IMG/VR virus record: IMGVR_UViG_3300045988_112257
Span: 1-40,438 of that record
Strand: one strand, 5' to 3'
Source of the DNA: a virus
Length of the DNA: 40,438 nt
Shown piece by piece: positions 4,295 to 34,944 of the stretch (the stretch's first letter is position 1; the number at the start of each line of letters is the position of its first letter). A program made the position numbers and the translations under genes. Below the pieces are notes generated by a model. The model was not told where the DNA came from. It made no database searches and worked only from the letters and a program-made list of their open reading frames with translations.

Positions 4295-4973
4295 AGTCAC
4301 GGCGCACCTGCTTGACGGCAGAGTAAATACAGCAGACGGGATCATCATGCTGGACGCGATATTGTATCATGCGTGGTTTAGCAGACACAAGCCGGAGGTC
4401 TTAGAGGGCTGCGGCAGCACGCAATATGACGGATATACGGGGCTGCCGCTGCGGCAGCTCCCCGATAATAGATGGGCGGCAAGCAGAGGCGTATTTAAGA
4501 CCGAGGGCAAAAACATCGAATACATAAATAGGAGACCCAACTTTTTCGATGCGGACAAGATCGGACATCTTGACATGGAGACGGGTATAATATCGGACAG
4601 CGTAGGCGTATACCGGGCGTACCGCATACCGCGAGTTGTCAGCACTGTCAGCGATATAGAGTTTTATGCCATGGGCGACAAGGCTAAAGTGCAAGACCTA
4701 TTGACGGCGATCCAGGCCGTAGGCAAAAAGCCCGCGGCGGGATATGGCTTTGTGGCCGAATGGAGTGTAGAGGACTGTGACGAGGATTACAGCCTGTGGC
4801 ACCCCGAGTACGGACTTATGCGCCCGGTGGTGGTCGGCAGTGACGAGGCAAAGGGGCTTGAGCTTAGTACATATCCCGTTATGCAATACGGAATAAAGCC
4901 ACCTTACTGGAAACCCTGCAATATGCGTTTGTGCCATGTGCCGATTACCGCGGCGGAGAATGCGACAACATGA
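4266..4973 (+). CDS. csf3: Cas5-family RAMP subunit (Csf3-like).
   Basis: Motifs read: IKVTAHLLDG..., IMLDAILYHAW, and a glycine-rich loop AVGKKPAAGYGF. A GTG start at 4266 follows aaaggaggg. The upstream part of the ORF-track frame lies inside cas7. Confidence 0.6.
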   Translation: MAKKPTTPIKVTAHLLDGRVNTADGIIMLDAILYHAWFSRHKPEVLEGCGSTQYDGYTGLPLRQLPDNRWAASRGVFKTEGKNIEYINRRPNFFDADKIGHLDMETGIISDSVGVYRAYRIPRVVSTVSDIEFYAMGDKAKVQDLLTAIQAVGKKPAAGYGFVAEWSVEDCDEDYSLWHPEYGLMRPVVVGSDEAKGLELSTYPVMQYGIKPPYWKPCNMRLCHVPITAAENATT

Positions 4974-5743
4974 CTATTGACGATTTTGTTAAGATAGGCG
5001 CGCTCAGGTCGGGCATGCGACAATACGCCGAAAAGCGAGACAAAGCAATAAGGCTTTGCGAAGAGCAATTCCGCACGCACAAAAGACCGTATGTTGCAAT
5101 AAGCGGCGGCAAAGACAGCGTTGCTATGGCGTACATTGTGGACGCTGCGGCAAGACGCGCCGGGGCGGATTATAGATTGTGGCTGCATTGCTCGGATGCA
5201 TCGTTCCCCGGCACGGTAGAGACATGCCGCAAGGTGGCCGCGGCGGTTGGCAGAGAACTCGATGTATTTGAAAGCAAGGATTCTGCGTTTGACGCGATAG
5301 CACGTCCGCAAAAGGCTGCATTTGGGAAAAGCGGCGTATTCTTCAGCTCTGTGCGCGAGTACGCAAAGGACAAGGATTTATGCTTTGTGGGTGTTCGGGC
5401 TACGGAGAGCCGGAGACGGATGCGTGCCGCTAAAGCACATGGGCAAGTGTTTGACAGCGCATCAATGGGCGATGTTACGGTTTGCCATCCGCTCCTATGG
5501 TTTACCCTGTATGATGTCGCGGCGGCGCTACACGAGTACAATACACCAATACACCCGATATACAAAAAAATAACAATAGAGCGCGGGGAAAACCGGTGCG
5601 GTGAAGAATCGTTTATCCGGCTCGGTTATATAACGTCACGCGACCTGCTCAACAAAGGCACAGCGGTGTTTCTGCGGATAAACTACCCAGACGAGTTTAA
5701 CAGGCTTGCAGCCGCGTATCCAGAGATACGGCTATGGGTGTAG
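4970..5743 (+). CDS. cysH: PAPS-reductase-family PP-loop protein (cysH-like accessory gene of type IV-B loci).
   Basis: PP-loop motif VAISGGKDSVAMAY. The start forms an ATGA overlap with the csf3 stop. Confidence 0.75.
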   Translation: MTIDDFVKIGALRSGMRQYAEKRDKAIRLCEEQFRTHKRPYVAISGGKDSVAMAYIVDAAARRAGADYRLWLHCSDASFPGTVETCRKVAAAVGRELDVFESKDSAFDAIARPQKAAFGKSGVFFSSVREYAKDKDLCFVGVRATESRRRMRAAKAHGQVFDSASMGDVTVCHPLLWFTLYDVAAALHEYNTPIHPIYKKITIERGENRCGEESFIRLGYITSRDLLNKGTAVFLRINYPDEFNRLAAAYPEIRLWV

Positions 5744-24770: not shown

Positions 24771-25514
24771 GTGAAAAGATACTTTGCAATGGTGCTTGCC
24801 GTTGTGCTGCTGTGCATATGCACGGGCGCACTGGCTATGGGCTGGGGACGCGCGGACAATCCGCCCCCGACCTACACCGTGACCGTCACTAAGCTGGACA
24901 AGGTGGCGACCACAAGCGGCGCGGCCTATACCCCTGCACCGGGCAAGGCTGCTACAGTCGGCACGGTGGTATACTTTACGGCAAAATTTGCAGATGCCGA
25001 AGGCAATTCCGTGCAGGGCACTATCAATCTTACGGATATGGACGTGCTGTATCTTGACGGCGATGTAGTCGCCGCGATAGTCACAGGCGCATACCCCGCC
25101 GTGCGGGCGGTATACGAGTATACCACCCCATTGGCGGAGCTGACCTATGACGGCAAGCCCGTGACCATAAGCGGGGATACTGTGACCATAGGCAGCTTGA
25201 CATTCGTCCGCCGCAATGGCGTGGCGGTAGATGTGTCCATAGCGGGCGGCCTTGCCGACCTGACCCGCGAGTTGAACACGCTGAGTATGACGCTTGACGA
25301 CATCTACGCGGGCAGGGTATACATGGACGATGCCGCGCTTGTGGCAAATCTCGGGCAGCACATCAAAGCCGAGGCCACGGCGGTATGGGGTGCTGATGGC
25401 GTGGTAGTGCGCACACCCGGCTTGCCGCAGACCGGCTCCGCGCCCGTGTATATAGGATTTGTGATGATACTGGCGGCTTTGGCCTTGGGGGTGCGTGTAT
25501 GGGCAAAAAGATAG
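24771..25514 (+). CDS. Secreted LPXTG cell-wall-anchored surface protein.
   Basis: GTG start. Signal peptide MKRYFAMVLAVVLLCICTGALA. The C-terminus has LPQTGS, the hydrophobic stretch APVYIGFVMILAALALGV, and the basic tail RVWAKR. Confidence 0.7.
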   Translation: MKRYFAMVLAVVLLCICTGALAMGWGRADNPPPTYTVTVTKLDKVATTSGAAYTPAPGKAATVGTVVYFTAKFADAEGNSVQGTINLTDMDVLYLDGDVVAAIVTGAYPAVRAVYEYTTPLAELTYDGKPVTISGDTVTIGSLTFVRRNGVAVDVSIAGGLADLTRELNTLSMTLDDIYAGRVYMDDAALVANLGQHIKAEATAVWGADGVVVRTPGLPQTGSAPVYIGFVMILAALALGVRVWAKR

Positions 25515-26176
25515 ACGATTTTGTCGCATACCTGAATAGCCATCTGGGCGACGCTTACGTCTGGGGCGCGCAGGGCGAAAGGGTAGACAACCGCGCCGAC
25601 CTCGAAAAATGGGTGCGGCGCAAGGAAACCTCACGCCGCGAGACCGAACGCGCCCTTGCGTACATCAAAAAAGCCGCCAAAACGCCGCTGTATGCTTATG
25701 ATTGCAGCGGCCTTATCGTTCATTGGCTTAGGGACATACGCGGGCTGATAGACAGCGATACCAACGCCCAAGGCTTATACAGACAGTGCAAGCAGCAGGG
25801 CAAGCTTGCCGCGTGGCAGATGCAAGCGGGGGATTTGGTATTTAGGTACAGCTTCGCCAAGGGCAAAATGGGACACGTGGGCGTGTATGTCGGCAACGGC
25901 ATGGTGATAGAGGCACAAGGCCGTGACGCTGGCGTAGTGATGCGCCATCTGTCTTACGGCGGCTGGACACATCAGGGCAGACACCCCGCGCTGGCCGAGG
26001 ATACCGCCCCAACCGTCTTTAGGCTGACATCGCCCATGATGCGCGGCGAAAACGTGGAGCTTATGCAGACCGCATTGAACGCCTGCGGTTACGATTGCGG
26101 CAAGGCCGATGGAATATGCGGCAAAGCCACAATGACGGCTGTAAAGGCGTTTGCAACAGCGCATACAGAGGTGTAA
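25499..26176 (+). CDS. Endolysin: NlpC/P60 endopeptidase with a C-terminal PG_binding_1 domain.
   Basis: Catalytic Cys context YAYDCSGLI, His context GHVGVYVGNGMVIEA, and C-terminal MQTALNACGYDCGKADGICGKATMTAVKAF. Confidence 0.8.
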   Translation: MGKKIDDFVAYLNSHLGDAYVWGAQGERVDNRADLEKWVRRKETSRRETERALAYIKKAAKTPLYAYDCSGLIVHWLRDIRGLIDSDTNAQGLYRQCKQQGKLAAWQMQAGDLVFRYSFAKGKMGHVGVYVGNGMVIEAQGRDAGVVMRHLSYGGWTHQGRHPALAEDTAPTVFRLTSPMMRGENVELMQTALNACGYDCGKADGICGKATMTAVKAFATAHTEV

Positions 26177-27105: not shown

Positions 27106-27134
27106 TTGACATATGCTTGATGCTGTGGTATTTT
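27106..27134 (+). promoter_or_regulatory. Promoter of the mini-array transcript.
   Basis: TTGACA (27106-27111), a 17-nt spacer, then an extended -10 TGgTATTTT (27126-27134). Repeat 1 begins 7 nt downstream. Confidence 0.6.
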
Positions 27135-27140
27135 AATAAT

Positions 27141-27231
27141 GTCATCCGGCAACGGATGAGGATTGAAATATTTAACTTTTCGTTTTTGCGTCTGGGACGC
27201 ATGCCACCCGCTTGCGGGTGTGGATTGAAAC
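27141..27231 (+). CRISPR. Mini-array or solitary-repeat unit. Two type I-C-like repeat hairpins (27141-27169 and 27203-27231) flank one 33-nt spacer (27170-27202).
   Basis: R1 is GT-CATCCG-GCAA-CGGATG-AGGATTGAAAT. R2 is GC-CACCCG-CTTG-CGGGTG-TGGATTGAAAC. Both share the same architecture: a 6-bp stem, a 4-nt loop and an 11-nt handle of the ..GGATTGAAA[T/C] type known from I-C repeats. The stem carries a compensatory T>C / A>G change. The two repeats match at only 20 of 29 positions. Confidence 0.55.
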
Positions 27232-27267
27232 ATTATTTATCTTTGGTGGGGTTTCAAACCAAAGAAA

Positions 27268-27296
27268 AAGATGCACCGCAGTGTATCTTTTTTTTC
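27268..27296. terminator. Bidirectional rho-independent terminator, closing both the mini-array transcript and the convergent gene 27307..27576.
   Basis: aagatgcac-cgca-gtgtatctt (9-bp stem with one G-U pair), followed by a T-run on the + strand and tttttcttt on the - strand. Confidence 0.7.
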
Positions 27297-27306
27297 TTTC
27301 CCCCGG

Positions 27307-27576
27307 TTATTTCACCCAACCCCAAAGATTTATCCAGTTTTTGGGACAAATTATCCGGTACATATAGGGCGGATTCCTCCAGTTGAGCCAGTCGAATATC
27401 CAGGCATCACCCCATTCATTATCAGCCGCCAGTGCATCCAGCTCCGGTATCCGCTCGTCCGATACGCAGTACACCCCGTAGCCCTCGTCCGTGATGTAGT
27501 GGCGTAAAAACTCCATGTGGTACTTTTCGGCTAAGGCCATCAGCGTGGCCTTGGTTCTCGGCATCCTTGCTTCCAT
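27307..27576 (-). CDS. Hypothetical small Trp-rich protein (89 aa).
   Basis: Second gene of the leftward unit driven by the 27982 promoter. Confidence 0.55.
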   Translation of the reverse strand: MEARMPRTKATLMALAEKYHMEFLRHYITDEGYGVYCVSDERIPELDALAADNEWGDAWIFDWLNWRNPPYMYRIICPKNWINLWGWVK

Positions 27577-27623
27577 TTTTTCTCTCCTTTGGGGCGGTGC
27601 TGCCGCCCCTTACCCTCTGTGTC

Positions 27624-27908
27624 TTAGCGGTTCAGCGTCTCGGCGGCGTGCTTGGCTACTGCCGCATCGTAGGCGGATTCGCAGTCCTCGTAGCTGTCAA
27701 AGTCTATATCCAGCTCATAGCACAGCGCCTCGACAAGATTCGGCTCCCACTCGGCATCGTCGTCTATGGCCGCTATAAGCTCATCTGCCGTAGCCGCGCG
27801 GACCTCGTTGCGGGGGAAGTCTTTTTCTGCTACCCGCCACATGGGGATAAAATCTTCGCCATACTGCTCGCGGGTCTCGGTGCCTTCAATCGCTTTGTAA
27901 ACCTTCAT
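27624..27908 (-). CDS. Small highly acidic protein (94 aa). Candidate anti-defence or DNA-mimic protein.
   Basis: Hand count gives 25 D/E versus 9 K/R. It is the first gene after a consensus promoter, and gggag lies upstream of the ATG. Confidence 0.6.
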   Translation of the reverse strand: MKVYKAIEGTETREQYGEDFIPMWRVAEKDFPRNEVRAATADELIAAIDDDAEWEPNLVEALCYELDIDFDSYEDCESAYDAAVAKHAAETLNR

Positions 27909-28019
27909 TTTTTTAACTCCCTCTGGGGCTTCAGCCCCTTGCTTTATCTTATGGCTATATTATACAGCAGATTTTATACTTTGTCAAGCGTTTTGCCTGA
28001 CAAAATTAAAAATATTTTT
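27909..28019 (-). promoter_or_regulatory. Consensus promoter, operator-like inverted repeat and conserved leader (copy A).
   Basis: On the minus strand: TTGACA (27987-27982), 17 nt, TATAAT (27964-27959). The palindrome TTGTCA-N11-TGACAA (27981-28003) overlaps the -35. The leader contains the hairpin ggggctgaagcccc. About 110 nt are shared with 29127-29238. Confidence 0.75.
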
Positions 28020-28022
28020 GCC

Positions 28023-28502
28023 CTACATATATATGCCGAAAACCTCTGCCAATGTGGCCTTGTGCTTTTGGGGGATTGGCCGCCTGCCACTCGTCCAGTC
28101 AGATACGGCCTGTCGGCTCATGCCACAAACATTGCCGACTTGCTCCAACGTTAGCCCCTTTTCGCGCATCTTTTCCGCAAGATAGTCGGGGTCGTTAAGG
28201 ATGGGGGCTGCCTTGCCGCGATAAAAAGCCAAGTCCCACATACATTGCTGCTGCGCGCTTATGACCTTATCACCATCGTCAAAATCTTCGGGGGCAAGCG
28301 GCTGGATCGCGTCGCTTATGGCGCGATCAAGGGGGGGCGTCATTTTGCGGGCGGCCATCAGCCACCGCATAGACATTGCAAAGCCGTGTGCCGGGCGGCG
28401 TTGCGCCTCCGCGAATAGCGCCGGCTCGCTAAGCTTATCGGGGCTGACTTGCCACGCCAGCCCGTAGATATACCCAAGTGTTTTTACTGCTTCATCTCGC
28501 AT
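28023..28502 (-). CDS. HTH (XRE-type) DNA-binding protein. Aca-like candidate regulator.
   Basis: C-terminal LTLEQVGNVCGMSRQAVSDWTSGRRPIP helix-turn-helix. It is the second gene of the unit driven by the 29201 promoter. Confidence 0.65.
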   Translation of the reverse strand: MRDEAVKTLGYIYGLAWQVSPDKLSEPALFAEAQRRPAHGFAMSMRWLMAARKMTPPLDRAISDAIQPLAPEDFDDGDKVISAQQQCMWDLAFYRGKAAPILNDPDYLAEKMREKGLTLEQVGNVCGMSRQAVSDWTSGRRPIPQKHKATLAEVFGIYM

Positions 28503-28517
28503 TTTTTCTCTCCTTTT

Positions 28518-29126
28518 TTATTTTAATAACATGGGCAGCAGCGCGTCGCGATTTGCCATTATGTACTCCCAGCACTGCCGTATCATAGCGGGCTGTATGG
28601 CTTCTCTGCTGCCGAATACCTCTATTTGCCGCCCGCTGAGTAGCTCTATGCCGACAAGGCATCTCTTGGCGCGGCGTTCCTCCGGCGGCGTTGTGCCGTA
28701 GTCTCGCGCATATATGCCGTAGGCATCCACAAATTCAACCGGGGTTATGTTGGCCAAGCCGGACTCTATGTTATTGATTTCGTATTCGGCGGGTTCCTTG
28801 GCTTCTTCGTTTGCGGTTTCTTCCGTTTTCTCAGTTTCGGGCTCTTCGGTTTCGGTGCGGGGGACGTAGACCACGATGGTCTTTGTTTCTTTGTTGTAGC
28901 TGCCGCGCTCGGTCTTGCATTCGCCATAGTTTTCTTTGTATTCGCGGTAGGACATTTCTACGGCTTCGCAACCTTCGGCGTTCTCGGCGTTTATGTGGGC
29001 TTCGTAGCAATCGGGGCAGTCGCCGTAAGTCTCATACCACTTGATTTTGCGTTCGCGTTGTTCGTTCGTGCCAAACAGCTCTATCGTAGCAGTGTGACCG
29101 CAGGAAAATGTTACATCGTACTTCAT
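28518..29126 (-). CDS. Hypothetical protein with an N-terminal Cys/His cluster and an acidic linker (202 aa).
   Basis: Contains FSCGH...GDCPDCYEAH and TETEEPETEKTEE. It is the first gene after the consensus promoter. Confidence 0.6.
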   Translation of the reverse strand: MKYDVTFSCGHTATIELFGTNEQRERKIKWYETYGDCPDCYEAHINAENAEGCEAVEMSYREYKENYGECKTERGSYNKETKTIVVYVPRTETEEPETEKTEETANEEAKEPAEYEINNIESGLANITPVEFVDAYGIYARDYGTTPPEERRAKRCLVGIELLSGRQIEVFGSREAIQPAMIRQCWEYIMANRDALLPMLLK

Positions 29127-29238
29127 AATTTTTAACTCCCTTCGGGGCTTGTCGCCCTTGCTTTATCTTATGGCCTTATTATAGCATGCAATTCCATTCT
29201 TGTCAAGCATTTTGCCTGACAAAATTAAAAAATATTTT
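29127..29238 (-). promoter_or_regulatory. Consensus promoter, operator-like inverted repeat and conserved leader (copy B).
   Basis: On the minus strand: TTGACA (29206-29201), 17 nt, TATAAT (29183-29178). TTGTCA-N11-TGACAA lies at 29200-29222. The leader and upstream blocks are near-identical to copy A, while the -35/-10 spacer differs. Confidence 0.75.
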
Positions 29239-29330
29239 TCCCCCGCTAAATGCCCGCAAAATTCCCTCCTCGCGCACAGGGCGCGGGGCTTAATTTTTGC
29301 GAAAATTAAGGCATAAGGAGGCGAGAAAAA

Positions 29331-31512: not shown

Positions 31513-32655
31513 TTAATTACCGCCGTTGCCGTGCGCTTTGGGGCTGGCAACTTTACGGCAACTTTTTTCAAATGCGCCCTGTAACTGCTTTGCACTGTAT
31601 TTTTCCTTCTGCGCCGAAAGGTGTGAATATATTTCAAGCGTGATTTTCGCGTTGGCATGGCCTAAATATCTTTGGGCGGAAAGCACGTCCACGCCCGCGT
31701 TATATAGTACACTGGCATAATTATGCCGAAGGTAATGCGGGGTTATGACCGATATCATCCGCCCGCCCTTTTCAATCGCGTCAATCTCCGGCGCGATATC
31801 ATATAGCCGCGCCATTAAGTCGTCCCATAGGCGGTATCGTGTCGCATTGCGGTGATATGACCCTGTAGACGACGGTACTACATACGACTGCGGCAGCCCG
31901 CGCACGGGGCGCAGCTTGTCCGCCAGTTCGCGCGGCATGGGGATTGTCCGCACGGACTTATCCGTTTTGGGTGCATCTATCTCCCCTGTCTTGCCCGCCG
32001 CCTGCTGCTCTATGCGGATTGTCCCCGCCTTGAAGTCAATGTGCCGCCATTGCAGGCCGCAGGCCTCGCCGTAGCGCATACCCGTGTAGTACAGCAGGGC
32101 AAGCATTAATGTGCCGTCCTCGTCCATCAGGCGCAGAACCGCATCCGTCTCCGCGTCCGTCAATGCCCTGCGCGTCTCCTTGGGCTTGGATGGGATTGTA
32201 AGCCCGACCGTGATATCCCGCGGGATAAGCCCCTGACTATACGCCCGCTGAAATACCCCGCGCAGGATTGTAGATATGTTGCCTATTATGGCGGCGCATG
32301 TGTCGGCCTTGGCGTTCAGCAGCCGCTGCAAGTCCTCCGTGGTGATAGCCGTCAGCCTTCGCCCCGCAAGCGCGGGAAAGATGTGCTTATATAGCGCCGT
32401 GCGGTATGACATCTGCGCGGATACGCCTATATGCGGCTGCTTGTACACCTCGTACCATGTCAGTGCGTATCGGTCAAAAAGTACTCCCTCCGGTGCAGCG
32501 TTTGCGCCCGTGACGTACTTTTCACGCGCCGCTGCCTTAGCCGCTTCTAATTCTTTTTTGGTGCGTCCTGACACATACTTGACTATGCTTTTCCCGCTTG
32601 CGTCCGTGCCGACTGTGATTTTTGCACGGTAGCGCCCATCTTTTTGCTTCGCCAT
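31513..32655 (-). CDS. int: Tyrosine recombinase / phage integrase.
   Basis: Catalytic signature contexts TGMRYGEACGL (Arg), HYLRHNYAS (H-x-x-R) and LGHANAKITLEIYSHL (His...Tyr). Confidence 0.9.
   Translation of the reverse strand: MAKQKDGRYRAKITVGTDASGKSIVKYVSGRTKKELEAAKAAAREKYVTGANAAPEGVLFDRYALTWYEVYKQPHIGVSAQMSYRTALYKHIFPALAGRRLTAITTEDLQRLLNAKADTCAAIIGNISTILRGVFQRAYSQGLIPRDITVGLTIPSKPKETRRALTDAETDAVLRLMDEDGTLMLALLYYTGMRYGEACGLQWRHIDFKAGTIRIEQQAAGKTGEIDAPKTDKSVRTIPMPRELADKLRPVRGLPQSYVVPSSTGSYHRNATRYRLWDDLMARLYDIAPEIDAIEKGGRMISVITPHYLRHNYASVLYNAGVDVLSAQRYLGHANAKITLEIYSHLSAQKEKYSAKQLQGAFEKSCRKVASPKAHGNGGN
31546..31565. repeat. Pair of GGCAACTTT units (right pair), located inside the 3' end of int.
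   Basis: tGGCAACTTTacGGCAACTTTtt. Confidence 0.45.
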
Positions 32656-32763: not shown

Positions 32764-33699
32764 TTACATGTTCATCAAATCGTAAAATACATTCTCCGAT
32801 ATTATCTGCAAGTCCGCCCCCTTTGCGATCAGGCTTTCAGCCCGTTTCAGTTTGCTGCTTTTGCCGTCCTTGATCCTGCTGTAGTCGCTCGCGCCGAGGA
32901 TTAGGAAATTGGTGTCCTTGGTGACCCCGTTGTCGCACAGTCCGCCGACATTTACCACGGCCTGCGCCGCGTCCAGGCGCACCATTTTGGCAAGCGTGCC
33001 AGTAAATACGCAATGTTTGCCGTATAGCGGGTGCATCTCGTCCACCGCCGTACCGTCTGCGGTAAGCGCGTGCAAGTCTGGGCGGGCGCTGCCATGGCTT
33101 GCCATCGCCGCCGTGAAATCGTCCCTGCCTATGCCCGCGTCTATATGTGCCAGCAATGCCTTATAACAGTCAATCGTAGCATGGCAGTCACCTATAGCGC
33201 GATGGGCTTGCGCGTGGTCAACGCCGAGCGCGTTCACAATATCCCTAAGCCTGTGGTGCTTCAAGTCGGGCAGCACTCGGCGGGATATGCGCATGGTGTC
33301 TATATAGCCATTGCTCACGGGCGATAAACCCTGACGTTCACAATTATCATAGATAAAATTGATGTCAAAATTTATATTATGGCCTAAAATGATATCGTCG
33401 CCCAGAAATTCACGGGCGGCGGGAAGCACCTCCGGCAGCGCCGGGGCGGCTGCAAGCATATCGTTTGTGATGCCCGTCAGCTCCGTCACAAATTCGTCTA
33501 TCTCCACGCCTGGGTTTACCAGCGTGCTATACTCCGCCGCTACTTCGCCGTGGCGGACGCGCACCATGCCTATTTCTATGATGCTATCCCATTCCGGGTC
33601 AAGCCCTGTCGTCTCCAAGTCCAGCGCAACAAAATCCTCCGGCAGCGCATTTACGGCCTTGCCCTTGTTTTCGCGGACTTTTGCAAGCTTTTTTTTCAT
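32764..33699 (-). CDS. DEDD (DnaQ/epsilon-like) 3'-5' exonuclease fused to a C-terminal BRCT domain.
   Basis: Exo I FVALDLETTGL, Exo II HNINFDINF, Exo III HRAIGDCHAT. BRCT-like segment CVFTGTL...GGLCDNGVTKDTNFLILG. The start was moved to the ATG at 33699, after gacaggagga. Confidence 0.75.
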   Translation of the reverse strand: MKKKLAKVRENKGKAVNALPEDFVALDLETTGLDPEWDSIIEIGMVRVRHGEVAAEYSTLVNPGVEIDEFVTELTGITNDMLAAAPALPEVLPAAREFLGDDIILGHNINFDINFIYDNCERQGLSPVSNGYIDTMRISRRVLPDLKHHRLRDIVNALGVDHAQAHRAIGDCHATIDCYKALLAHIDAGIGRDDFTAAMASHGSARPDLHALTADGTAVDEMHPLYGKHCVFTGTLAKMVRLDAAQAVVNVGGLCDNGVTKDTNFLILGASDYSRIKDGKSSKLKRAESLIAKGADLQIISENVFYDLMNM

Positions 33700-33725
33700 G
33701 TCGTTTCCTCCTGTCTTTTTACAAA

Positions 33726-34196
33726 TTACAAAATTGAGCCTTTCATGCCCTGCGCGGCTTCTGCGTGCCGCCTGAGCCATCCCACGGCGGGGTTTAACAC
33801 ATCGCACAAAAACAGCCCTATCAATATTCCGGTTACGCTTACGCTGTACACCACCGCCCACCGAAGCCATTTGCCAAGATGCTGTATGCGCCTATCCTTT
33901 TCCGCAAGCAGCAGCCTGACTGCGTTGGTGTACCTCTGTGTAGGCTCTTCGGCCTCCTGCGGCACGGCTCCGTAAATCTCGTCCACAAATTCATGCATTG
34001 TCGCGCCTAAGCCTTGGGTAACAAGTATTTCATAAGTTGCCATTGGCGTTCCGGTTGTGCCTTGCAGCGTGCGGGTAAGCGTGGAGGCGGCTATGCCGCT
34101 ACGCTTTGACACGTCCTGCAAGGAGATCCCTCGCTTTTCACGCATTCGCGTAAACGCATCTGCGTATTTCCGATTATTGTCCTCAAAAATGCCCAT
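33726..34196 (-). CDS. Membrane-tethered XRE-type HTH regulator.
   Basis: HTH ISLQDVSKRSGIAASTLTRTLQG and a C-terminal TM segment WAVVYSVSVTGILIGLFLC. The start was moved to the ATG at 34196, after aaggggag. Confidence 0.6.
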   Translation of the reverse strand: MGIFEDNNRKYADAFTRMREKRGISLQDVSKRSGIAASTLTRTLQGTTGTPMATYEILVTQGLGATMHEFVDEIYGAVPQEAEEPTQRYTNAVRLLLAEKDRRIQHLGKWLRWAVVYSVSVTGILIGLFLCDVLNPAVGWLRRHAEAAQGMKGSIL

Positions 34197-34526
34197 TTCT
34201 CTCCCCTTTTCCATTTTCGGTGTTGCCTTTTTCCATTTTCGGATGCGCCAATTCCGTTTCTGGCGCGCTTTTCCGTTTTTGGCCATATCCATTTTGCTAT
34301 GTGTGTAGTAATCTGTACTTGCGCATAGGGGCGCACTCACGGGGGCGGCGCAACCTTACCTTGCTTCTCCGCCGCCCCCTCCACCCACCATAGATTATAT
34401 GATGTATGGTGTCTGTGATATGGTATCATATCTTAACAATTTTTTGCACGGAGGATAATACGATGACCAAGAAAGAAAACGCGCTGCTTAATGCCATTCG
34501 CGACCCCCAGAAGCTTGCCGAAATCA

Positions 34527-34868: not shown

Positions 34869-34944
34869 TGTCACAGGTCGTGACAAAAAGCAAGAAGAAA
34901 ATGTCACAAAAAGTGTTGACACATATAGTGTCAAGATGTATAAT
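34869..34944. promoter_or_regulatory. Lysis-lysogeny switch region with palindromic operators and the rightward consensus promoter.
   Basis: TGTCAC-aggtc-GTGACA at 34869-34885. A half-degenerate TGTCAC-aaaaa-GTGTTG at 34902-34918. TTGACAC-atata-GTGTCAA at 34916-34934, which overlaps the -35. Promoter TTGACA (34916-34921), 17 nt, TATAAT (34939-34944). Confidence 0.75.

Follow-up and report, generated by a model that had tools for sequence, protein, structure and literature searches.

The window analysed here is the whole 40,438-nucleotide (nt) stretch of IMG/VR virus record IMGVR_UViG_3300045988_112257 (positions 1 to 40,438), and our subject is a compact minus-strand island at 27307–29242, in which two tandem operons are each headed by a copy of the same promoter, operator and leader module. 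The window belongs to a temperate siphovirus, with an NlpC/P60 endolysin gene at 25499–26176 and a tyrosine integrase gene at 31513–32655, and the island lies between the lysis genes and the prophage end. Operon B consists of a 202-amino-acid (aa) cargo gene (28518–29126, minus strand) and, beginning 15 nt past it, a regulator gene (28023–28502, minus strand) for a 159-aa helix-turn-helix (HTH) protein, referred to here as HTH159. Operon A consists of a 94-aa gene (27624–27908, minus strand) and an 89-aa gene (27307–27576, minus strand). A bidirectional intrinsic terminator at about 27263–27297, a hairpin flanked by an A-run and a T-run, serves both the island and a convergent small RNA gene, the mini-array, on the plus strand (27106–27232). 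The original prediction, made from the letters of this DNA, had placed the 202-aa and XRE-type HTH genes behind one promoter, the acidic 94-aa gene and the 89-aa gene behind the other, and a type I-C-like mini-array in convergent orientation beyond a common terminator, and all of this was borne out.

Each of the four island open reading frames (ORFs) has homologues in a conserved protein family, and all four are therefore real genes. The 202-aa protein (isoelectric point 4.7, net charge −16) begins with a zinc-ribbon-like domain (CGH...CPDC), which an acidic linker joins to a C-terminal domain; its N terminus matches PHROG 16123 (5.5e-12), and its slot is variable in content among relatives. 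HTH159 carries its XRE-type HTH at the C terminus (residues 108–157 match Pfam HTH_3; E = 1.5e-7, 31.7 bits against a cutoff of 23), behind an N-terminal part of about 100 aa without a match; it belongs to a tiny family of 16 clusters (≥80% identity). The 94-aa protein is very acidic (isoelectric point 4.1, net charge −16). The 89-aa protein belongs to a wider family of proteins of about 80 aa with the motif Y-R-I-x-C-P-x-x-W-F-D-L-W-G-W, which comprises 58 representative clusters, one of them with an HTH fusion. The second genes of the two operons share one translation start region: an identical 17-nt CATTTTTTCTCTCCTTT, containing the ribosome-binding site (RBS) and start codon on the minus strand, precedes the 89-aa gene (27574–27590) and the HTH gene (28500–28516). 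There is no terminator between the end of the HTH gene (28023) and promoter A, which follows directly after the stop codon, so that read-through of promoter B transcripts into operon A is possible.

The duplicated module is about 115 nt long and lies on the minus strand at 27909–28023 and 29128–29242. Its copies align in two blocks (27910–27964 with 29129–29183, 55 nt, 85% identity; 27981–28023 with 29200–29242, 43 nt, 88% identity), and the 16–17-nt stretch between the blocks, with almost zero identity across the copies, is exactly the −35/−10 spacer. Both copies have a 12/12 match to TTGACA-17-TATAAT (27987–27959 and 29206–29178, minus strand). Exact matches to this promoter occur at three sites in the 40-kb window, compared with 0.18 expected at ≤1 mismatch, the third being at 34916–34944. 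In promoter A (27959–27987, minus strand), the −35 hexamer TTGACA occupies 27987–27982 and the −10 hexamer TATAAT 27964–27959, separated by a 17-nt spacer; promoter B (29178–29206, minus strand) has its −35 at 29206–29201, a 17-nt spacer and a TGn-extended −10 at 29183–29178. Transcription is predicted to start at about 27952 from promoter A and, from the constant TATAAT-N5-C-A spacing, at about 29171 from promoter B.

An inverted repeat, TTGTCA-N11-TGACAA, overlaps the −35 hexamer of each copy and occurs at only these two sites in the window (0.06 expected). It is in fact a 23-bp near-palindrome, TTGTCAGGC-AAAAY-GCTTGACAA, with 8/9 matches per arm and the −35 hexamer within the right arm; the putative operators are thus TTGTCAGGC-AAAAC-GCTTGACAA at 27981–28003 (operator A) and TTGTCAGGC-AAAAT-GCTTGACAA at 29200–29222 (operator B). 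On the 5′ side of each operator is a perfect A/T palindrome, AAAAATATTTTT (28008–28019 and 29228–29239), which is kept in most promoter copies of relatives and is possibly an UP element or a second site. The leaders (27909–27954 for A and 29127–29173 for B, minus strand) begin downstream of the −10 hexamer with CCATAAGATAAAGCAAGGG (27954–27936 and 29173–29155), which is 100% the same in both copies and has no further site in the window. A small GC hairpin follows (GGGGCTGAAGCCCC at 27938–27925 and GGGCGACAAGCCCC at 29157–29144), as does a GGGAG RBS (27921–27917 and 29140–29136) 8–9 nt upstream of the first ATG of each operon. The hairpins have energies of −10.2 and −7.6 kcal/mol, respectively, and, with z of about −0.7 to −0.8 against shuffles, are not significant by themselves; relatives retain the stem with a variable loop. 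We rejected the hairpin as an attenuator or riboswitch, as it is small and of ordinary energy, and its loop changes without covariation. Rfam scans of the island and of the related loci L001, L012 and L063 gave no family for the leader, and sub-threshold msr and sX5 matches were dismissed as chance. The original prediction of two copies of about 110 nt, with perfect promoters, an inverted repeat over the −35 hexamer and unrelated spacers, thus holds, and the repeat can be extended to 23 bp. Of the conserved leader that it also described, the hairpin and GGGAG are all present, but the hairpin is statistically unremarkable and the leader is generic in phages (see below).

Operator and leader scans yielded about 40 related loci. 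The usual layout among them is a promoter (P1), a variable gene, HTH159, a second promoter (P2), the acidic 94/97-aa gene, the 89-aa gene and the mini-array. At about 25 loci with HTH159, the TTGTCA..TGACAA palindrome is found at every one of the 2–3 promoters present, and its half-site spacing follows the regulator: HTH variant I (SRQ[AS]VSDWTSG[RK]RPIP) goes with N11 at 28/28 operators and variant II (SRQAVHDWVCGTSQIR) with N10 at 14/14. The two variants are otherwise about 90% identical, and the differences fall mainly in and just after the recognition helix. A change in operator always shows in all promoter copies of a genome. Two loci, L016 and L065, have a 64-aa ribbon-helix-helix (RHH)-like protein in place of HTH159; their promoters (4/4) have lost the TTGTCA..TGACAA palindrome and carry TAGGTATATACCTA between −35 and −10, with the leader unaltered. 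The lysogeny switch of locus L069 (variant II) has a promoter and operator identical to those of the window (variant I), but the island operators of the two differ, so the island operator does not follow the phage repressor. As read from these alignments, the pattern is what a cognate repressor–operator pair predicts, and we propose that HTH159 is an Aca-like (anti-CRISPR-associated) repressor of both promoters. The co-variation, which is independent of the lysogeny-switch operator, indicates co-regulation of the two operons by HTH159, as had been suggested for the window; this is independent comparative support, and nothing contradicts it. The natural specificity switches (N11, N10, and RHH with another palindrome) should be useful for studying the co-evolution of Aca-type repressors and their sites.

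The link to anti-CRISPR (Acr) function comes from a relative. Protein P0071 (153 aa) is 90% identical to the window 94-aa protein over its N-terminal 94 residues, and its C-terminal 56 residues match Pfam AcrIC5 (PF22147) over the full model (E = 1.1e-21, 77 bits against a cutoff of 27). At its locus, L030, leader, hairpin and RBS are those of the window, the palindrome of the consensus promoter differs, and the AcrIC5 operon ends at the same terminator as the window island; downstream of P0071 is a 61-aa ORF with several sub-threshold RHH matches. Because its 90%-identical homologue is fused to AcrIC5, the 94-aa protein is the best anti-CRISPR candidate of the island. The Pfam AcrIC5 profile has zero matches to the window 94-, 89- and 202-aa proteins even at E-values up to 1, and the 94-aa protein and AcrIC5 have only a 10-residue motif in common, E(Q/K)YGEDF(I/V)xM. 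The earlier proposal of an anti-defence locus thus gains comparative support from the fusion, under the same leader and with the same terminator, and from the adjacent CRISPR-repeat-like small RNA genes, and an anti-CRISPR role for the window's own proteins is suggested by association only. Separately, we observed that an RNase_T exonuclease with a BRCT-like tail and an HTH_31 protein adjoin the integrase in the window (32764–34340, minus strand), and that the same pair occurs in L030 (361–1792), directly 5′ of the AcrIC5-fusion operon and after an apparent truncated integrase start.

The mini-array is transcribed towards the island from its own promoter (TTGACA-17-TATTTT, 27106–27134, plus strand) and has its own terminator. 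It comprises two divergent I-C-like repeats (27139–27170 and 27201–27232) around a 30-nt ‘spacer’ that is conserved across about 15 phages. The stems of the repeats differ by compensatory changes, and the repeat-like hairpins end in GGATTGAAA(C/T); in L004 and L011 the element is reduced to a single repeat. Judged by this anatomy, it looks like a repeat decoy or CRISPR RNA (crRNA)-like RNA more than an acquired-spacer array, and its two repeats with a conserved spacer would suit a mini-array or crRNA-like RNA no less than an RNA anti-CRISPR (Racr). A different small RNA gene, for a repeat-like hairpin RNA, is found in L001 (MT835524, 5364–5489), where a TTGACT-17-TATAAT promoter precedes a strongly folded RNA of about 90 nt (z = −4.5) with no Rfam match, beside an extra third cassette; L012 appears to carry the same element. 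The L001 RNA contains GTTCCCCGCGTAAGCGGGGGTGA, which we take to resemble a type I-E repeat.

The cassettes between the promoter copies are exchanged among phages. The slot after P1 is occupied by four unrelated genes across phages (202 aa, 140–148 aa, 187 aa and 227–243 aa), and the spacer, which comes in five or six variants, shows no fixed association with the gene downstream. Locus L001 is without the mini-array and 89-aa gene (window 27117–27590) and has a third cassette inserted exactly at a promoter copy, in which the hairpin RNA gene, under a promoter of its own, is joined by a 227-aa gene and a third copy of the promoter; three promoters are also found in L063 and contig 111583. At L014 (473–574) and L068 (about 9015) there is a single hybrid promoter, with a P1-type upstream flank and a P2-type operator, spacer and gene. 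Cassette 1 with the HTH gene has been lost at both, as expected from a crossover inside the promoter repeat, and their −35 hexamer is weakened from TTGACA to CTGACA, which may be compensation for loss of the repressor. The cargo proteins of L011, L012, L016, L039, L072 and L112 are mosaics made from a few common modules that recombine among phages: a CGH..CPxC zinc ribbon, an N-terminal ‘SKIMKRAWE’ helix, a ‘GTxKQIxWAxxIR...FIDNR’ domain and a ‘YKSGNIS...NGE’ domain.

An 88-kb metagenome contig contains the phage in integrated form, with host genes starting soon past a 102-aa gene, so that 2–4 kb separate the island from the end of the prophage. Records that match the phage are ‘Siphoviridae sp. 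ct91l7’ and MT835524 from human faeces, and the exact HTH159 sequence is on 344 contigs; the lineage is therefore very common in human-gut metagenomes.

Taken with the sequence anatomy and the reality of the genes, the regulator–operator co-variation, the cassette shuffling and the AcrIC5 fusion in a relative, all of which are observed here, lead us to regard the locus as probably an Aca-type, self-repressed anti-defence island of a temperate siphovirus of a human-gut Firmicute, directed most likely against type I-C CRISPR-Cas. For the DNA binding, repression, expression timing and anti-CRISPR activity of the window's own proteins, we infer the following course. The functional unit would be an A/T tract, a 23-bp operator over the −35 hexamer, a consensus promoter for sigma-A and a leader that is short, stable and equipped with a strong RBS, each copy driving a short operon. 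On phage entry, host RNA polymerase would fire promoters A and B together, yielding the 202-aa cargo from promoter B and the 94- and 89-aa cargo from promoter A, perhaps with some B-to-A read-through. HTH159, made from the second gene of operon B, would accumulate and bind as a dimer to the −35 palindrome of both promoters, shutting both, so that a single regulator acts in cis and in trans. The convergent mini-array would contribute an RNA that acts as a repeat decoy or resembles a crRNA, and the flanks of the promoter unit would provide homology for the gain, loss and swap of cassettes, the regulator included.

Control of this kind has precedents. Repression by an Aca of its own and an adjacent anti-defence operon has been shown, and the role of HTH Acas can be taken by RHH proteins (Feussner et al., NAR 2026, PMC13551039); the RHH protein Aca14 has been validated and Aca1, Aca2, Aca4 and Aca12 are predicted, with Aca11 and Aca13 in addition (PMC13551039; PMC12282945). 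As in acr–aca loci, a small DNA-binding protein, HTH159, is encoded downstream of cargo in a strong-promoter operon; near-identical inverted repeats, unique in the window, lie over the core promoters of its own and the adjacent operon; the cargo is small and of unknown function, with a known Acr alongside in a relative; and HTH and RHH regulators are interchangeable. The window differs in that HTH159 has no detectable similarity to the Acas deposited in the PDB and has an extra N-terminal domain of about 100 aa, and in that the whole promoter/operator/leader unit (about 115 nt) is duplicated, with a diversified spacer, and would act as a recombination joint. One Aca controlling its own and a neighbouring anti-defence operon being already known, the island adds a new family and lineage, not a new principle. 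What is new is a narrow regulator family without similarity to deposited Acas (by PDB sequence comparison), the candidate inhibitor families, the natural operator and regulator variants, and the proposed role of the duplicated promoter unit in recombination, as a joint.

Experiments on a Bifidobacterium pseudocatenulatum prophage have demonstrated a type I-C Racr located immediately next to an AcrIC5 homologue (Camara-Wilpert et al., Nature 2023, PMC10651486). That AcrIC5–RacrIC1 pair and the window both combine, in a human-gut prophage, a type I-C protein inhibitor with an I-C repeat-like RNA gene alongside, on the window side by association. The RNA of the known pair, however, is co-transcribed 11 nt downstream of acrIC5, whereas the window RNA gene is convergent and has its own promoter, two divergent repeats and a conserved 30-nt ‘spacer’; the window has no AcrIC5 itself, which occurs among relatives only as the L030 fusion. 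Virus-borne mini-arrays and viral crRNA-like RNAs (bioRxiv 10.1101/2024.10.29.618823; PMC11656645) are similar in their two degenerate repeats, lack of cas genes and conserved, not acquired, spacer, but in the window such an element is the neighbour of the promoter/operon island and not the island itself. Phage morons resemble the island in position (past the lysis genes, towards the prophage end), in bringing a promoter and terminator of their own and in being present in some relatives and absent from others; what sets the island apart is a putative dedicated repressor, whose matching operators are found on two operons, and an anti-CRISPR link. Candidate type I-C inhibitors of gut Firmicutes would be the acidic 94-aa protein, the 89-aa family, the zinc-ribbon cargo family and the RNA mimic, and the strict promoter/operator/leader syntax offers a search handle for more anti-defence cassettes in uncultivated gut phages.

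Several observations weigh against this interpretation. We compared the four island proteins, five neighbours and ten cargo variants of relatives with Pfam, PHROGs, NCBIfam and PADLOC and found nothing beyond HTH_3, a zinc-ribbon PHROG and AcrIC5 in P0071; PADLOC returned only marginal matches to the HTH region (E ≥ 0.019), and no defence-system model was satisfied by the island proteins. Searches of the four proteins against PDB chains with phmmer, among which are the Aca1 and Aca2 structures (PMC8633003, PMC8434428), gave only generic XRE matches, for HTH159 (E ≥ 0.012), none of them named Aca. By sequence, the four island proteins show no match to any known Acr, Aca, anti-defence or defence family. 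The 89-aa and 94-aa proteins were modelled with AlphaFold2 (predicted local distance difference test scores of 86, alpha/beta, and 83, mostly helical, respectively); the models had no Foldseek fold match in the PDB at E < 0.1, and against BFVD they matched only uncharacterized phage proteins. The AcrIC5 link is one of guilt by association through a fusion on one 3-kb contig; the phages behind the co-variation counts belong to a few related lineages, so the counts are not independent events; and the mini-array repeat reached only E = 0.08 and 22.4 bits against Rfam CRISPR-DR9, below the gathering score of 45. The leader, being generic, adds nothing specific to the case for anti-defence. A genome-contig scan for the operator gave only 2 chance-like matches, in alphaproteobacterial metagenome-assembled genomes, and thus no host.

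Three rival explanations are less well supported than an Aca-type island. The island could be an ordinary prophage moron or accessory cassette, expressed in the lysogen under a local repressor and helping the host or excluding other phages through defence, superinfection exclusion or lysogenic conversion. Its position after the lysis genes at the prophage end, its own promoters and terminator, and its variation among relatives would all suit such a cassette, as would window proteins without Acr homology and the occurrence of the same leader and promoter type ahead of integrase, Cro-like and nuclease genes in other phages. Yet a defence function finds no PADLOC match, the same slot holds an AcrIC5 fusion of the 94-aa homologue, mimics of CRISPR repeats are adjacent, and the cargo is small and strongly acidic, as is typical for DNA-mimic inhibitors; we therefore consider a moron of this kind unlikely. 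A pairing of the upstream gene with HTH159 as a HigBA-type toxin–antitoxin system, with the toxin first and the XRE antitoxin second, autoregulated at the promoter palindrome, agrees with the gene order and the palindrome, and the weak PDB sequence matches of HTH159 include the antitoxin MbcA (E = 0.03). The same HTH159, however, stands beside at least four unrelated upstream genes, so that a cognate toxin is not to be expected; Pfam, PADLOC and NCBIfam searches gave no toxin family match, and the second operon has no regulator of its own. This makes a toxin–antitoxin system highly improbable.

The third possibility concerns who binds the palindromes. Were they bound by the main repressor or Cro of the phage, or by a host factor, the island would be slaved to the lysis–lysogeny switch. 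The promoter at 34916–34944 is also perfect, with a palindrome of the same TTGACA/TGTCAA hexamers (TTGACAC-N5-GTGTCAA), and L014 and L068 retain the operator without the island HTH159 gene. But half-site order and spacing differ between the island and switch operators, operator class I or II tracks the variant of the HTH159 recognition helix, the island operator switches while the lysogeny-switch operator remains identical (L069 compared with the window), and replacement of HTH159 by the RHH-like protein coincides with a full operator swap at both promoters. Control by the switch is accordingly improbable, and HTH159 is the better candidate for the regulator of the proposed anti-defence island. 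On the plus strand, the 34916–34944 site has a perfect palindrome, TTGACAC-ATATA-GTGTCAA, between and over its hexamers, with further TGTCAC repeats upstream; from this arrangement it is presumably the early promoter and operators of the lysogeny switch, and promoter and operator are identical in L069, L078, L208 and L210.

The leader extends far beyond these islands. Its first 12–18 nt, CATAAGATAAAG[CAAGGG], are at 27942–27953 and 29161–29172 of the window (minus strand) and also at loci L031–L207; the first 12, AUAAGAUAAAG, are common to more than 100 otherwise unrelated Firmicute phage promoters. The 18-mer CATAAGATAAAGCAAGGG occurs at 61 metagenome loci, about 45 of which place it 5 nt past a −10 hexamer, and the operators of these promoters are all different. 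At least 119 viral loci contain TATAAT-N5-CATAAGATAAAG; among the matches listed, 100/129 promoters have at least 5/6 of TTGACA at 16–18 nt, although the −35 was absent from the search pattern, and the GC content of the loci ranges from 25 to 58%. Many of the phage contigs hold several copies, with five in 2 kb in L131. The genes behind the leader are mostly small unknowns and also include integrase, Cro-like HTH and exonuclease genes. We therefore rejected the leader as a marker of anti-defence, given that it also precedes integrase, Cro-like, nuclease and many unrelated small genes; as judged from these contexts, it is a mark of strong host-polymerase phage promoters generally, not of anti-defence operons specifically.

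A tentative extension, doubtful at this stage, is that the promoter/operator/leader unit of about 115 nt is a portable joint for cassette exchange without an integrase, and that the shared leader stretch is functional. The A/T palindrome and operator upstream and 18–45 nt of leader downstream may serve as homology arms, which may permit insertion, deletion or swapping of anti-defence cassettes, RNA decoys and even the regulator together with its operator, and the −35/−10 spacer may be kept different between copies, limiting deletion. The stretch AUAAGAUAAAG may have a function in immediate-early expression, as an RNA or initial-transcribed element, rather than reflecting shared ancestry alone; it could be a 5′-end stabilizer, a translation enhancer or a host-factor site.

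In low-GC phages (L018, L024, L032, L036, L042, L043, L053, L057, L066, L070, L082, L088 and L089), the leader extends to a long hairpin, AAGATAAAGCAAGGG...CCCTTGCAATATCTT, followed by a conserved tiny ORF of 29–33 aa (MYTDYGYIGKADNILYATEQEALEANPNN or MKGYYTAYGYMGYVNGKYQLF...), often twice per locus. In Streptococcus thermophilus phage SW7 (L092, record 25245–25328), a palindrome, ATCATATATGAT, and the CATAAGATAAAG leader are part of the promoter of SW7_026, which is located between an annotated ‘Acr-like protein’ gene (SW7_024) and a cro-like gene.

The design of the window island, in unrelated sequence, recurs in a [Ruminococcus] lactaris prophage (L025), at the same post-lysis position. Two duplicated TTGACA-17-TATATT promoters (4360–4457 and 4915–5002) have common operator-like repeats (CACTAAATTAGTG / CACCAATTTAGTG); one promoter drives a gene for a 139-aa HTH protein and the other a gene for a 166-aa homologue of the zinc-ribbon cargo.

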